A stretch of 64,000 nucleotides of DNA, taken from contig OX597817.1 in NCBI GenBank assembly GCA_951406725.2, positions 110,546,001 to 110,610,000 on the forward strand, read 5' to 3'. The notes below the pieces were generated by a model. That model was not told where the DNA came from, did not search any database, and saw only the letters and a program-made list of their open reading frames with translations. Each line of letters begins with the position of its first letter. Position 1 is the first letter of the stretch. Made by a program: the position numbers and the translations under genes. This DNA comes from Octopus vulgaris. Taxonomy: Eukaryota. This document shows, one piece after another, positions 5,863 to 60,618 of this stretch.

Positions 5863-6164
5863 AATATATGTATATATGATGGCAGTCCACTTGTGACGAA
5901 GGAAGACCATCACTGACCGTTAAGAACATTGTGCACCCAGACAGAATTATACTTACAATGTACACATATACACATCAAGAATATTTGTGTGTGTGTAAAT
6001 TGTTTTCCTGGTTTTAGTTATTGGCCTGCAACTTTGTTGTATCAACACCTTGAAGGATTTTTAGTCGATCATAATCATGCCAGTACTTATTTCAATCTGG
6101 TACTATTAACAATGAACAAGGCTGGTTTTCAAACCAATGTAACACAAACACATTTACCAAGTCC

Positions 6165-6802
6165 TTTGTGAGCCGCTCTCCGGCTATCTATCTGCGGCTT
6201 TATATAGCTATGGTAAGACTTCACCTAGAATTTGCATCACCAGTCTGGAACCCCTATCTTGCCCAGGATATTAATCGTCTGGAAGCCGTTCAGCGACGTG
6301 CAACCAAAAGAATACCCTCCATCAGGCATTTGCCATATTCTGAACACCTTACTTCCCTGGGCATGGATACATTGAAACTCCAACGTCTGGCAGCTGACTT
6401 AGCAGTCACCCATAAAATTATTAACCATTTTACAAACAATAACTCTGAGCACCTTTTCAAACTCCACCCGTCTAACACCCGTGGACATATTTACAGTCAG
6501 AAAACAACACAGCTCCCATGACTTTAGGAAACATTTTTTTACGCTGAGAGTTGCTGAAGCATGGAACAAACTGCTGGCATCAGTTGTTAGTTGTCGGAGC
6601 ACTGCATCCTTCAAAACTTCCATGCTTTCTGGGATTTGCCAACACTACACCTGATTTTCTCCCCTCCATATACACACAAGCATGTATCTGACTCATACAT
6701 TGTTCGCTTTCTAGACATTTGTACATTACTGCATAGACTTTATACGCACTTTCTGACAAGTTGTGGTGCACCTGAGCACTGTATACAATAATTTCATTAT
6801 TA
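6165..6802 (+). mobile_element. CR1/L2-clade LINE 3' end (RT C-terminal region plus 3' UTR)
   Basis: ORF 6168..6521 reads LYIAMVRLHLEFASPVWNPYLAQDINRLEAVQRRATKRIP, typical of the CR1 ORF2 C-terminus. It has an (ATT)n tail and a near-identical sister copy at 35646-36015. Confidence 0.9.
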
Positions 6803-8231: not shown

Positions 8232-9578
8232 TATCATCATCATCATCATCATCATATGCTGGCATGGGTTGGATGGTTTGACTGAAGACTGGCAAGCCAG
8301 AAGGCTGCACCAGGCTCCAATCTGATCTGGCAACTGCTCCGCTTCCTAACGCCAACTGCTCCGAGAGTGTAGTGGGTGCTTTTTATGTGCTACTGGCATG
8401 GGAGCCAATCAGGCAGCACTGGCATCGGCCATGCTTGAATGGTGCTTTCTACATGCCAGTGAGGCAGCACTGGCATCAGCCATGACTAAGATTTCACTTG
8501 ACTCAACAGGTCTTCTCAAGTAGAGCATACTGCTTGATGATTGAAGGACACTTTTAAATGGGTCAGTTATACAACACTGGTATCAGCCACAGCTATGATT
8601 TCACTTGGCTTGTTGGAGCTTCTCAAGCAAAGCATATCTCCAAAGGTCTTGGTTGCTTGTCATTGCCTCTGTGAGGCCCAACATTCAAAGGTCATGCTTC
8701 CCCACCTCATCCCATGTCTTCCTGGGTCTACCTCTTCCACAGGTTCCCTCCACTGTTAGGGTGTGATACTTCTTCACACAGCTGTCCTCATCCATATGCA
8801 ACACATGACCATACCAGTGCAGTCATCTCTCTTGCACACCACATCTGATGCTTCTTTGTCCAACTTTTCTCTCAGAATGCTTGCACTCTGTCGTGTATAC
8901 ACACTGACATTACACATTCAGCAGAGCATACTAGCTTCATTTCTTTCAAGCCTATGCATGTCTTCAGCAGTCACAGCCCGTGTTTCACTGCCATGTAGCA
9001 TGGCAGTTAGCACATATGCATCATACAGTCTAGCTTTCAGTCTAAGTGAGAGGCCCTTTGTTACCAGCAAAGGTAGGAGCTTTCTCAACTTTGCCCTGGC
9101 TATTCTTATTCTAGAAGCTATGCTCTCAGAGCATCCACCCCCACTACTGACTTGGTTACCTAGGTAACAGAAGCTATCAACCACTTCTGGTTTTTCCCCC
9201 TGGCATATGAAGGAATCTGTTTTCTGTACATCTTCAGTGCTTATTGACCCTGTGCCACACACAAAAAATATCTTCCCAGTTAACCTTTCTTTGATATTGC
9301 TGCACCTCTTATGTGTACATAGCTTACACTGGGTACATCTTATGGAGTTTCTACCTATGCCTTTTCTACAGATCGAGAAGGGCCATCTACCTGAAGGGAA
9401 TTGTGATTTGTCTGCCTTCCTACTTACTAAGACCTTGGTTTTTGCTAGATTGACTCTAAGACCCTTCAATTCTAGACCTTGCTTCCACACCTGAAACTTC
9501 TCTAGTTCTGGTAGTGACTCAGCTATTAGAGCAAGGTCATCAGCATAGAGGAGCTCTCAGGGGCAGCCTGTCTTGAAT
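8232..9578 (-). mobile_element. 5'-truncated RTE LINE (same family as 59584-61214)
   Basis: Minus strand has ELLYADD and ORF 8918..9490 (GLRVNLAKTK...SFCYLG...MLHGSET), followed by the 3' UTR and a (GAT)n tail. Contains stops and indels. Confidence 0.93.
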
Positions 9579-10090
9579 GTTTATGAAAATGTTTTTGTCA
9601 TTGAACCCTAGTCTGAATGGCTGTAGATTTAACCGAATAATATATAAATATATATAACAAGAACAAGAATGAAGAAAACCACATCTTTAATTTGTGATTA
9701 TACCATACATTACCGATGATCATTTCTATGTGCTAGCATGTTTAAGTGATATTTAGATTTACTTGTCATACATGAAGAATTACCTTGGATGTTAATTCTA
9801 CTTGAATTTATTGGTATCTGATTGTTTGATATAGTTAACCAATTTCATTTAACACTGAGTGCTTTATAGATATTTGCCTGGATTTATTAATCCCTTTTAT
9901 TTATATATATATATATATAAAATAATAGTTATCGCCATACTAATATGGCATTCTTATAAAAATAAGAAAAAAGCTGTCCGCTTATTAGCTCCATGAGGCC
10001 ATCGCCTTAAGTTAGCTATTTGATACACAAACTGTATCCATATAACCTTCGAACAAGGGAGGTCAGTCACTCCACACTACTTGACCGGCA

Positions 10091-10132
10091 GCTACAGACG
10101 CGTTTCGGAGTATTGCCCCTTTTCAATGCAGC
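10091..10132 (-). ncRNA. Minimal type I hammerhead ribozyme, U3-A8 core variant, intact copy
   Basis: GCTGCA-TTGAAAA-GGGG(CAATA)CTCC-GAAA-CGCG-TC-TGTAGC. Stem I extends through GGCTGGC/GCCGGTC and CACCTACT/AGTAGTGTG. Confidence 0.8.
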
Positions 10133-10339
10133 GTAGCCAGCCAGTAGGTGTCGCTTCCGACAATCTCTGTTCGATGGTTTTATTTACCTAGTTTCGGTGG
10201 AATACATCCACTTGTTTTCAATAATAGAAATATTAAAATAACTAAGTCTCTCTAAAAGAGAACAGCGGCAGCGTTCCCGGAAAATAATAGTTATCGCCAT
10301 ACTAATATGGCATTCTTATAAAAATAAGAAAAAAGCTAC

Positions 10340-10381
10340 GCTGCATTGAAAAGGGGCAATACTCCGAAACACGTCTGTAGC
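10340..10381 (+). ncRNA. Minimal type I hammerhead ribozyme, U3-A8 variant (stem III CACG)
   Basis: Same motif as 10091-10132 with CGCG changed to CACG. Predicted cleavage is after C10375. The upstream stem I extension is cut off by the inversion junction. Confidence 0.7.
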
Positions 10382-10700
10382 TGCCGGTCAAGTAATGTGG
10401 AGCGACTGACCTCCCTTGTTCGAAGGTTATATGGATACAGTTTGTGTATCAAATAGCTAACTTAAGGCGATGGCCTCATGGAGCTAATAAGCGGACAGCT
10501 TTTTTCTTATTTTTATAAGAATGCCATATTAGTATGGCGATAACTATTATTTTCCGGAATGCTGCCGCTGTTCTCTTTTAGAGAGACTTAGTTATTTTAA
10601 TATTTCTATTATTGAAAACAAGTGGATGTATTCCACCGAAACTAGGTAAATAAAACCATCGAACAGAGATTGTCGGAAGCGACACCTACTGGCTGGCTAC

Positions 10701-10742
10701 GCTGCATTGAAAAGGGGCAATACTCCAAAACGCATCTGTAGC
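10701..10742 (+). ncRNA. Hammerhead motif copy, probably inactivated (G12>A, G16.2>A)
   Basis: GCTGCA-TTGAAAA-GGGGCAATACTCC-AAAA-CGCA-TC-TGTAGC. Both changes are CpG>CpA. Confidence 0.65.
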
Positions 10743-10965
10743 TGCCGGTCAAGTAGTGTGGAGCGACTGACCTCCCTTGTTCGAAGGTTATATGGATACA
10801 GTTTGTGTATCAAATAGCTAACTTAAGGCGATGGCCTCATGGAGCTAATAAGCGGACAGCTTTTTTCTTATTTTATAAGAATGCCATATTATATGGCGAT
10901 AACTATTATTTTCCGGAACGCTGCCGCTGTTCTCTTTTAGAGAGACTTAGTTATTTTAATATTTC

Positions 10966-11004
<39 letters not shown>

Positions 11005-30449: not shown

Positions 30450-32670
30450 TCCATAACCCTGGCTGACTCTTTTGGTTTAAGGGGAGAGTTGGGGAGTTGG
30501 TAAGCATTGATGCACCAGATTTGTGGAAGACTTTTAAAGAAGGGGTACTAAAGGCATGTGACAAAGTGTATGGAAGGATGAAAGGTAGGAGAGATTGAGG
30601 AGATACATGGTGGTGGAATGAGGAGGTGAGGGATGCGATAGCGAGGAAGAAGGAGGCACACAAAGCTTTATGTCATAATAGGACTGAGCAAAAGAAATCC
30701 AGGTATGATAACATGAAGAATAATGCAAAGAGGGTGATTGCGAGATCTATGAGGAAGGAGGCTGAGGAGAGGTTGAGCGGGCTGGATGAGAACCCAGATA
30801 GAGTGTTTAGGTTTATTAAATCAATGAAAAAATGGCAGAGATGTTGAGGGTGGAACATGCATGATGGAAGGTTGAATTTTAGTGAGAAGGAGAAGGGAAG
30901 AGTTTGGAATTATGAATGAGGAGAATGAATGGGATCAGAGGGTGGAAGTTGTGAAGGGGCCAGTAGAGAGGATTAGTCAGGAAGAAGTAGTGGAGGCAAT
31001 GAAGGAAATGAAAAGAGGAAAGGCATCTGGTCCATCAGAAGTAAGTGTGGAAATGATAACTGCAAGTGGAGAGATAGGGATTGTTGTGATGATGGAACTC
31101 TATCAGGGTGTGCTGGATGGAAGAGGAATGCCAGATGATTAGGCACTAAGTATGATGGTACCAATCTTCAAGGGGAAGGGGAATGCGATGAGTTCTGGGG
31201 TGTATAGGGGAGTGAAGTTATTGGAGCATGCAATGAAGATAGTGGAAAGGGTTTTGGAGAGGAGAATTCAGAAAGGGGTGGATGTGGATGAGATGCAATT
31301 TTTTTTATGCCAGGAAAGGGGACAATAGATGCAGTGTTCATTGTAAGGAGATTGCCAGAGAAATACAAAGATAAGAAGGAATTGTGCATATGCTTCGTTG
31401 ATCTGGAGAAGGCATTTGATAGGGTTCCAAGGAAGGTGATTGAGTGGGCATTGAGGAAGAGAGGTGTACTAGAGGTAATAGTGAAGGCAGTGATAAGTTT
31501 ATATGAGGGGGTAAAGACAAGAGTTAGAATTGGATCAGAGTTGTCAGAGGAGTTTTCAGTGAAAGTTGGTGTGCATCAGGGAGCTGTGTTGTTACCGTTG
31601 TTGTTTGCAATAGTGGTTGATGTGGTGATGGAGAGTGCAAGAGAAGGATTGATAATGGAGATACTGTATGTGGATGACCTTGTTCTGATGAGTGAGATGC
31701 TGGAGGGATTGAGGGAGAAGTTTTGGAAATGGAAGGAGGTATTTGAAAGCAAGGGTTAGAAGGTAAACCTCAGGCAGACAAAGGTGATGGTGAGCGGGGT
31801 GGAAGGAGAAGTATTAGTGAGTTAGATGGATCCGTGAGGTGTATGTTGGAGGAGGGTAATGGCAAATGCAGTGTTGTGTACGAGATGTGAGAAATGGATT
31901 CATGATAGATGTACAAAAATGAAGAAGGTGACCCCAAGACTGGCAAGAGAGTTTGTTTGTGGAAGATGTGAGAAAGGAGCTGGAGGGCTGGCAGAACCAG
32001 TGGAACGTTATGTGATGAGGAGGAAATGGTGAGAGGATTTTGTTATGTAGGAGATAGGATGGATGTAAATGGTGGATGTGAAGCAGCTGTGACAGCAAGA
32101 GCAAGACTTGGCTGGGTGAAGTTCAGGGAATGTGGAGTGTTGTTATATGGGAAAAGGTTCTAATTGAAGATGAAAGGAAAGGTCTATAGGAGTTGTGTGA
32201 GAGCTACGATGCTATATAGACATGAGACATGGTGCCTTGAGGGAGAGAGATGGCAATTTTGAGAAGGACCGTGAGAGCAATGGTGAGAGAAATGTGAGGA
32301 GTGAAGCTGTTGGATAAGAGGAGGTCTGAGGACTTGATGGTGATGCGGGGGTTGGAAGAATTGGTGGAACAGCTGGCAAGGGTGAATGGAGTGCAGTGGT
32401 ATGGGCATGTGTTGAGGAGGGATGGGGAGTACGTTTTGAAGAGGGTACTTGAGTTTGAAATAAATGGACCACAAAAGTGAGGTAGATCCAGGAAAATGTT
32501 GAGGGGACAGGAATGAGGAGATTGGGAGGGTTGGCTTGAGAAGGGAGGATGCGCAAAACAGGGCAAGATGGTGTGAGGGCAGTTGCTATGGCATTGAGGT
32601 AGATCCAGCCACCCCTGTTAATAGGGACAAAACCTAGATTTAAAACACTAGATGATGATGATGATGATGA
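30450..32670 (+). mobile_element. RTE LINE (second family), 5'-truncated and decayed, covering most of the RT
   Basis: Motifs TWWWNEEV, KASGPSEV, FVDLEKAFDRVPR, GVHQGAVLLPLLF, ILYVDDLVL, FCYVGD and WYGHVLRR are present, followed by a (GAT)n tail. Frameshifts and stops. Confidence 0.93.
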
Positions 32671-58594: not shown

Positions 58595-59522
58595 AAATTG
58601 TGGGATCCAGGCCATGATTGACAACGACCTCTCCAAGTCAGTCAGGTTCATCGCCAGGGAAATGGTAATGTCTGAGTTTCTTATCACACAGGTAGTGCAT
58701 GAAGACATTCAGTATTCCTCATACAAGATGAGAAAGGACCAATTTTTATCCCAAGCCATTAAGGACAAGTGGAAAAACTGCACTACAAATCTTTTGAACA
58801 AACTCAAGCATGCCCTCCAACCGAACATGCTATGGGTTTTCTCAGATGAGAATAGTTTCTGCCGGGCTCAGATGGTGAACACAGAACAACCGTTGGCTTG
58901 CTGTGTCCACAAAACATGTTGACATCCAGTCAACATCATGGTGTTTCAAGCGATCACTAGTGATGGCAACGATATGCCTCCATTTATCTTCCCACATGGC
59001 CTCACACTCAACACGCAGGCCTACATCAAGTGCCTGAAGGAGGCAGTGCTGCCCTGGGTCAAGAGGGTGGCTGATGGAAGACCCTATGTCTGGCAACAAG
59101 ACTCTGCACCATGCCACACAAGTAGGAGAACCCAGTCATGGCTGTTAGACAATTCCTGCAACCACATCACACCTAACATCTGGCCACCTAACTCCCCAGA
59201 CTCCAACACCCTTGATTATTATGTGTGGGGTGCAGTTGAGTGAGAGACCAACAAAATTCCTTGTAACACCAAAGATGAACTGAAAGCAAGGATTATGGCA
59301 GCATTCACCAACTTAAACAAGGAAACCTTCCAAGAAGAGTTGCAGGAGATTTTGAAGTCTTCTGGAGGCTATGGTTGAAGCCAATGGCGATTTTATTGAA
59401 TAAAGATTTACTCTTTAATATTTCAAGACATTTTTATGTAATTTTGGTAAATATATCTATTAAAATGAGATGTCAGTGTTATTTTCATTTTTGTATAATT
59501 TAGACAATTTATTCACCACTCC

Positions 59523-59525
<3 letters not shown>
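58595..59525 (+). mobile_element. DD37D (maT-type) transposon, 5'-truncated pseudogene
   Basis: WVFSDE ... WQQDSAPCH ... WPPNSPDSNTLDY, with 37 residues between the second and third D. Ends CTCCCTG|TA. Confidence 0.9.
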
Positions 59526-59583
<58 letters not shown>

Positions 59584-59588
<5 letters not shown>

Positions 59589-60618
59589 CATAGTCCTATT
59601 TATCATAGTCCTCCAGGCAATTACGGAGGAATTCAAGATAAGTTGCCCCTGGGAGCTCCTATATGCTGACGACCTCGCTCTAATTGCTGAGTCACTATCA
59701 GAACTGGAGGAGAAGTTCCAGGTGTGGAAGGAGGGTCTAGAATTGAGGGGCCTTAGAGTTAACCTAGCAAAAACCAAAGTAGTAATAAGTAGGAAGGTAG
59801 ACAATCCACAAATGTCTTCAGGAAGATGGCCCTGCTCGATCTGTAGAAAAGGTGTAGGTAGAAACTCTATAAGATGTACCCAGTGTAAGCTATGGACACA
59901 TAAGAGGTGCAGCAATGTCAAAGGAAGGCTAACTGGGAAGATAGTTTTTGTATGTGGCAGATGCTCTGGAGCATTAACCTCTGAAAATCTGCAGAAAACA
60001 ACTTCCGTCACTTTCCAGGGGGAAAAACTAGAAGTAGTTGATAGCTTCCGCTATCTTGGTGACCAAGTCAGTAGTGGGGGTGGGGGTGCTGAAAGTGTAA
60101 CGGCTAGAGTAAGAATAGCCTGGGCAAAGTTTAGGGAGCTCTTACCTCTGCTGGTGACTAAAGGCCTCTCGCTCAGAGTAAAAGGCAGACTGTATGATGC
60201 ATGTGTACGAACAGCCATGCTACATGGCAGTGAAACATGGGCCGTGACTGCTGAGGACATGCGTAAGCTCGCGAGAAATGAAGCCAGTATGCTCCGATGG
60301 ATGTGTAATGTCAGTGTGCATGCTCGACAGAGCGTTAGTACCCTGAGAGAAATGTTGGACCTAAGGGGAATCAGTTGTGGTGTGCAGGAGAGACGATTGT
60401 GCTGGTATGGTCATGTGGCGAGAATGGATGAAGATAGGTGTGTGAAAAAGTGCCAATCCCTAGCAGTGGAGGGAACTCGTGGAAGAGGTAGACCCAGGAA
60501 AACTTGGGACGAGATGGTGAAGCACGACCTTCGAAATTTAGGTCTCACTGAGGAAATGTCCAGCGACCGAGACCTTTGGAAATTTGCTGTGCGTGAAAAG
60601 ACCAGGCAGGACAAGTGA
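59584..60618 (+). pseudogene. RTE reverse transcriptase, C-terminal half (uninterrupted), with a PHD-like insert
   Basis: LLYADD, GLRVNLAKTK, FRYLG, MLHGSETW, RLCWYGHV and RGRGRPRKTW. The listed start at 59470 is an artefact of the upstream TIR and microsatellite. Confidence 0.93.

Follow-up and report, generated by a model that had tools for sequence, protein, structure and literature searches.

Family A, a 362-nt tandem repeat of Octopus vulgaris, is probably a young, non-LTR-type retrozyme. Its hammerhead ribozyme has a U3-A8 core pair that covaries with the C3-G8 pair of related families, is predicted to cleave as a dimer and likely gives rise to an RNA circle, which the enzyme of a Penelope-like element (PLE) likely copies into (TA)n tracts. 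The family is represented in the window, that is, the whole 64,000-nt stretch of contig OX597817.1 (GCA_951406725.2, positions 110,546,001 to 110,610,000) analyzed here. In the proposed cycle, a tandem array would be transcribed, and two ACGCGU palindromes would pair to form a shared 6-bp stem III in a double hammerhead. Cleavage after GUC would release unit-length RNA, which would be ligated to a circle. A PLE-encoded enzyme would copy this circle into (TA)n, with both cut DNA strands serving as primers for reverse transcription (RT). Synthesis would start at two internal positions some 60 nt from each other and continue round the template.

Hammerhead copies in the window

The window has three UUGAAAA cores, as the earlier sequence-only reading had claimed: one on the minus strand at 10126 and two on the plus strand at 10346 and 10707. 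All three lie inside one insertion (9919-10971) with (TA)n on both sides, in which one minus-strand and one plus-strand arm of the 362-nt unit face each other head to head with a 3-base overlap at the inversion joint (Table 1). Being a single insertion of one repeat, the three copies provide no independent evidence of covariation. No ORF of at least 120 aa is present over the element.

Table 1. Features of the family A insertion (window positions)
Feature	Position	Strand	Remarks
Intact type I hammerhead with extended stem I	10077..10147	-	Fold and alignment
Hammerhead core copy 2, U3-A8	10346..10375	+	G>A at 10371; distal stem I lost at joint
Hammerhead core copy 3, U3-A8	10707..10736	+	G12A (10727) and G16.2A (10734); predicted to be dead
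Left arm	9919..10337	-	Monomer 122-362, then 1-178; proximal start site end by (TA)n
Right arm	10335..10971	+	Monomer 322-362, one full unit, 1-238; distal start site end by (TA)n
Full unit, cleavage site to cleavage site	10376..10736	+	361 nt (family unit 362 nt)
(TA)n target, left	9898..9918		
(TA)n target, right	10969..11001		

In the intact copy, U3 is at 10126 and A8 at 10121 (minus strand), and the interval 10132-10091 corresponds exactly to the core plus the 6-bp proximal part of stem I. The elements listed for this copy by the sequence-only reading were all found: a GGGG/CUCC stem II, here capped by the loop CAAUA, followed by GAAA, the CGCG palindrome (ACGCGU in full), GUC and a long stem I with a UAC/U internal loop. 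This stem is 18 bp (6+7+5; 10147-10077), and the internal loop appears in both the minimum free energy (MFE) and the centroid fold. The copy shows the type I hammerhead core pattern, N3 U G A N N8 A...GAAA...UH with a Watson-Crick 3-8 pair, and three covariation-supported helices with an open stem I; stem III is a single pair in the monomer, A15.1-U16.1 closing a CGCG loop, and 6 bp in the dimer. Cleavage is predicted between 10097 and 10096. The fold has an energy of -28.8 kcal/mol (z -2.57), equalled by 3 of 200 shuffles. A full descriptor allowing either core, with a stem II of at least 4 bp and a stem I of at least 6 bp, matches the window twice and has no match in any of 60 dinucleotide shuffles.

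The plus-strand copies are damaged. The substitution in copy 2 disrupts its palindrome, and since the right arm begins only at 10335, little of the distal part of stem I is left in this copy. For the plus-strand pair, the stem III duplex amounts to -1.1 versus -7.5 kcal/mol. Both plus-arm units share a 1-base deletion that the minus arm does not have. The one intact copy lacks a partner on its own strand and both remaining copies are damaged, so that the window locus is probably decaying, inactive in cis and no source of new copies. Five of the six substitutions relative to the family unit in 9919-10971 are CpG transitions, and across loci transitions amount to 82/8297 at CpG sites versus 126/33926 elsewhere, an excess consistent with methylation-driven decay.

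Predicted dimer fold and loop contact

The unconstrained MFE structure of a tandem dimer of two ribozymes is the double hammerhead (-152.6 kcal/mol), in which the 6-bp ACGCGU helix is shared as stem III. The earlier suggestion of cleavage as a dimer agrees with this predicted fold. Small PLE hammerheads reportedly cleave as dimers. In the monomer, closing A15.1-U16.1 costs 5.6 kcal/mol and the MFE structure misfolds the core. Moreover, the stem III hexamer is palindromic in all related families despite a differing middle (ACGCGU versus ACCGGU). A close structural parallel is the axolotl HHR_Amex1, which likewise combines a stem III of 1 bp with a palindromic tetraloop; on its own this motif is a poor cleaver, whereas its dimer cleaves well (PMC7229834). 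These features make it improbable that the monomer cleaves efficiently through a loop 1-loop 2 contact that offsets the 1-bp stem III, in which case the intact window copy could cut alone. In favor of such a monomer, all tertiary-contact residues are present, and the coral and mussel retrozyme monomers do cleave (PMC7229834).

Three residues are in question: the U that follows stem I, the C at the end of the UAC loop and, in loop 2, the 3′ A. They are kept in 10 of 10 alignment rows, single-copy changes aside, and the same residues make the loop contact in the Schistosoma hammerhead (PMC2632901). Their presence here fits the idea, put forward before from the letters of the window, that the UAC/U loop may dock with loop 2. 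As in Schistosoma Sm-alpha, internal loop 1 has a 5′ U and an extrahelical C after UA, and loop 2 ends in A (PMC2632901). Loop 2 is CAAAUA in family B, as in the Schistosoma hammerhead, and CAAUA in family A, one base shorter than in Sm-alpha; family A also differs from Sm-alpha (PMC2632901) in having just one U on the 3′ side of loop 1 and a U-A core pair.

Size, consensus and class of family A

Family A is a young mobile repeat of roughly a thousand copies with a 362-nt period, dispersed over many contigs as tandem arrays that reach about 10 units. Exact-pattern searches returned 144 cores with the window's G-U in stem II and 860 with another base there, which is C (a G-C pair) in 100/100 among the matches listed. 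Position 3 is U in 1003 of these 1004 cores, the sole exception being C3-A8, and C3-G8 occurs in none; A8 is found in 200/200 among the matches listed. Another 100 loci have 184 cores, and 184/184 carry both U3 and A8, whereas N7, the G-U/G-C pair and a G-C/A-U pair in stem I vary as subfamily markers. The consensus core is UUGANAA, so that the objection anticipated by the sequence-only reading, a CUGANGA family consensus, does not apply. Of 20 sequencing runs listed as carrying the sequence, none is on record as RNA. Contigs from eight of these runs have no listed variant at position 3 or 8, and their 392-nt wrap-around contigs could derive from a tandem as well as from a circle; we draw no conclusion on expression from them. 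Ten C3-G8 matches with an ACGCGU stem III were considered as members of family A and belong elsewhere.

The family has the hallmarks of non-LTR retrozymes: a non-coding tandem unit within 150-450 bp, one type I hammerhead per unit, a GC content below 50% and dispersed multimers. The unit is strongly self-paired (z -7.06, 0/100 shuffles as good). A non-coding tandem unit with a type I hammerhead once per unit, self-pairing and co-occurring PLEs are likewise features of metazoan non-LTR retrozymes, whose units measure 350-390 bp in mussel and 330/350 bp in axolotl, and stem III of family A resembles that of axolotl HHR_Amex1 (PMC7229834). Differences exist as well. The core of family A is U3-A8, of which the parts consulted of PMC7229834 and bioRxiv 10.64898/2026.07.22.740005 make no mention for retrozymes, and its insertions consist of two arms in inverted orientation whose fixed ends lie in (TA)n, whereas the word "inverted" is absent from the main text of PMC7229834. 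A further mark of retrozymes is abundant unit-length linear and circular RNA in vivo.

Rfam hammerhead models gave no match to the window at the gathering threshold or at E<=10, nor to the C3-G8 loci L125 and L133; on five loci outside the window, they returned one weak HH9 match (E 0.36) and microsatellite noise. Hence, the expectation that standard searches miss the variant is borne out insofar as Rfam is blind to it even at E<=10, but the U3-A8 pair alone is not the cause: because C3-G8 relatives are missed too, the failure reflects model coverage.

Covariation of the 3-8 pair

Family B (364 nt, 87% identical to A) keeps U3-A8, with N7 changed, G10.1-C11.1 replaced by A-U and a longer loop 2 (see above). 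Families D and E, with units of about 359-360 nt, have C3-G8. Even without the ribozyme, D/E are colinear homologues of A/B (alignment scores of -7 and 15 for A-D and B-D, with maxima of -23 and -17 in 200 shuffles), and D/E insertions end at the two positions matching those of A/B. Two loci (L189 and L190) are 81-90% alike to D/E yet carry U3-A8.

These relationships were explored in an alignment of 10 hand-picked, related representatives, for which the shuffle counts are no probabilities. Positions 3 and 8 are U-A in seven rows and C-G in three, with no mismatch. Overall, 98.8% of the 160 alignment cells are paired (26-49% in slid controls); 9/16 helix pairs have changes on both sides (shuffles as high, 5/500), and the both-side-change cells number 34 (shuffles as high, 0/500). 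The compared families are only about 52-55% identical over the alignment. On this evidence from homologous families, the swap of C3-G8 for U3-A8 is a real compensatory change, and the covariation proposed at the outset holds. Parsimony would make U3-A8 the ancestral state of this group of retrozymes, with a later reversion to C3-G8 in D/E.

Genome-wide counts were made for ACCGGU and ACGCGU stem III cores with an 11-17 nt spacer, and therefore imply no genome-wide majority. Among 9400 ACCGGU cores, 8811 are U3-A8, 166 are C3-G8 and 423 are mismatched at 3/8 (reversed-pattern controls: 37, 20 and 112, respectively); among 1861 ACGCGU cores, the C3-G8 pattern ending in GUC occurs 10 times (control 4). 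In the ACCGGU class, searches restricted to CUGANGA would thus miss most palindromic-stem-III hammerheads here. Had positions 3 and 8 varied independently, no more than ~15 C3-G8 cores would be expected, versus the 166 counted, a comparison to be read with the reservation that the copies are not independent.

These data bear on the view that UUGAAAA is a decayed or chance look-alike, U3 and A8 being two independent mutations amplified with the repeat. The mismatched ACCGGU cores could be cited in its favor, as could the fact that the window copies stem from one insertion and that two are damaged. We give it almost no credence: in addition to the excess of C3-G8 cores and the empty shuffles in the descriptor search, U3-A8 is found in several unrelated families, some within the pLTRs of ORF-bearing PLEs, and the covariation across families has already largely refuted it.

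The variant as such is already known and not new. Natural U3-A8 hammerheads have been reported, with citation of in vitro activity, and are an accepted natural variant (Perreault et al. 2011, PMC3088659). About 1,300 U3-A8 motifs are present in Schistosoma mansoni PLEs (Cervera and de la Pena, PMC4209133), where the in vitro activity is credited to Przybilski and Hammann 2007. Under the exact terms, "U3-A8" was found in PMC4209133 and in no other text, and C3U/G8A nowhere. We found no published account of family A in the main texts (supplements aside) of the literature, that on octopus and cephalopods included. Family A adds a family and no principle, and with U3-A8 in print (PMC3088659, PMC4209133) the novelty initially assigned to the motif was rated too high.

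Family A shares the compensatory U3-A8 core pair with the S. mansoni PLE motifs. These are minimal hammerheads with a long helix II and an ill-defined loop 1 (PMC4209133), in contrast to family A, in which stem I has the canonical 6 bp, stem II has 4 bp and the tertiary loop motif is present. Assignment of family A to the minimal PLE hammerheads (min-HHR) was rejected on the 4-bp helix II, the lack of an extra base between 9 and 10.1 and the presence of the tertiary motif.

Insertion footprint and RNA template

The footprint was examined at 135 loci, chosen as the top BLAST matches plus the first listed pattern matches and thus biased toward intact copies. The outer ends of the arms are fixed, at monomer ~172-178 (proximal) or ~235-239 (distal), one per arm. 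In 84 two-armed loci both ends are at a start site; 83 of these have one proximal and one distal end, both ends are distal in the remaining one, and the combination of two proximal ends does not occur. The other loci comprise 29 with a single arm, 14 with two arms of which an end is atypical or cut off, and eight complex loci, including one (L304) without any arm at the 85% cut-off.

Family A insertions have the footprint of PLEs: an inverted arm, partial tandems, a tail at one end and a microsatellite target. The likeness to PLE insertions extends to the 5′ truncation of the inverted arm, two internal RT starts and an AT-rich or (TA)n target (PMC8557442, PMC11167929), and the tail signature of PLEs has been explained by two internal RT start sites (PMC11167929, PMC8557442). 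In contrast to PLEs, family A has no ORF, and its tail is about 60 nt rather than 30-40 (PMC8557442, PMC11167929). The start sites are strictly one per arm in family A, whereas the anole element PAc showed no strand difference in vitro (PMC11167929).

Differences at marker positions between the two arms of a locus number 13 in 534 comparisons, versus 182 expected for independent templates. Nine substitutions, each found in 1/135 loci, are present in all units of both arms. Ten further unique substitutions occur in all units of the sole arm covered, 139 in single units, and six are mixed. The concordance of the arms together with the rare shared variants fits one circular RNA template; for any single locus, a linear transcript from an already uniform, unsampled array is a possible source as well. 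Taken as a whole, the footprint points to Penelope-type copying of one RNA, which would likely be a circle.

The rare variants common to all units are rich in A>G on the ribozyme strand (11/34 versus 18/240 for single-unit variants; p 1.6e-4). At L270, three A>G changes within 6 nt are common to all units, and at L002 two are present in both arms. Clusters of this kind are suggestive of A-to-I editing of the template RNA, with an error bias of the RT as a possible alternative.

Alternatively, the hammerhead could be real in origin but weak or protein-dependent, the repeat spreading from uncut multimeric array transcripts without a circle. There is no spike of arm 5′ ends at the predicted cut (1/221 at position 1), that is, no cDNA run-off at this site; ends within about 10 nt of the cut number 21/221 versus 12.8 expected (p 0.019), an excess weaker than the hot spots at 39-49. 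One long linear transcript of a uniform array would also predict the concordance of the arms. Furthermore, PAc insertion in vitro did not depend on hammerhead cleavage, which itself required protein (PMC11167929), several PLE hammerheads have low or no in vitro activity (PMC4209133), and 8/9 Xenopus retrozyme dimers were uncleaved in vitro (bioRxiv 10.64898/2026.07.22.740005). Against this stand the rare variants in every unit of both arms, which under such a scheme need an ancestral monomer-to-multimer step, and the retention of core, helices and tertiary residues across the divergent families in the alignment. We consider spread from uncut transcripts unlikely, if less so than monomer cleavage, and favor copying from a circle.

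Arm 5′ ends cluster at monomer 39-49 throughout the family. Some inversion joints recur: 39/48 was seen three times, and 122/322 is common to the window and L049. The overlaps are mostly 2-4 bases.

PLEs in the same genome

A PLE origin of animal retrozymes has been proposed from co-occurrence and pLTR similarity, with the mechanism left open (PMC7229834, bioRxiv 10.64898/2026.07.22.740005). The octopus genome harbors a very young autonomous PLE (e.g., L182 2263-6198, plus strand) with a 1312-aa ORF encoding RT and GIY-YIG domains joined by a C-x4-C-x2-C linker. It gave 10998 first-look candidates, 99 of which were scored at 98-100%. Its start sites are at +35 and +91 (56 nt apart) and its target is (TA)n, the same end pattern as in family A. 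Inspection by eye placed immediately before the ORF, on its upstream side, an atypical hammerhead-like motif of the C3-G8 type in which C replaces A9; this motif, from the most abundant young PLE seen, lies outside the counted stem III classes.

Several U3-A8 families lie in the pLTRs of ORF-bearing PLEs. At five loci (L201-L205), the pLTRs of ORF-bearing PLEs with a CGRPNC linker contain U3-A8 hammerheads whose stem III is ACCGGU, and just one arm of these PLEs has a tail; by their linker, we take them to be Neptune-type. PLEs with this linker are described as Neptune-type (PMC8557442).

Unit A has no BLAST similarity to the PLE loci examined (three PLE families), and no joined family A/PLE insertion was found in 22 single-arm flanks. 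For family D, a junction with a PLE is present in 4/30 PLE loci (L152, L155-L157): an arm of the family D retrozyme is joined to a PLE arm, as in L151 3968-6673 and L155-L157, with the junction on two contigs. The junction is identical in all of them and therefore represents a single event that was re-copied within long TA tracts.

A broader reading, which we put forward tentatively and rate a shade below even, is that in this animal lineage U3-A8 is now the standard hammerhead of Neptune-type PLEs and their retrozyme parasites, with one retrozyme branch back to C3-G8. Each insertion would then record a single RNA circle, in some cases with A-to-I edits, from which a Penelope RT dimer made its copy starting at two fixed sites, one per cut strand. 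If true, it would offer a natural paired set for measuring the effect of 3-8 pair identity and genomic proof of how animal retrozymes are mobilized. Because naturally occurring close relatives carry one pair or the other, the 3-8 pair can be tested cleanly within a full-length type I hammerhead, and the footprint supports the mobilization of animal retrozymes by PLEs from one RNA template. Most of the value of family A lies in these paired natural variants and in its insertion footprint.

Other features of the unit and its surroundings

At L033 (1758-1892), a family B fragment adjoins a family A insertion in one TA tract, an instance of repeated target use. The window also contains what are presumably LINE-type reverse transcriptase fragments (8918-9556, minus strand; 6075-6521, 31292-31759 and 59464-60618, plus strand), which bear no relation to the ribozyme repeat as far as seen.

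A second hammerhead-like motif is located in the unit at 10612..10648 (plus strand), with a second copy at 10221-10185 (minus strand). It consists of UUGAAAA, a 5-bp hairpin and GAAAC..GUA, has no stem I, begins at the distal RT start site and is identical in families A and B. Its descriptor, written after the motif was seen, is matched by 0/20000 shuffles. The motif is possibly a relic of an older ribozyme.
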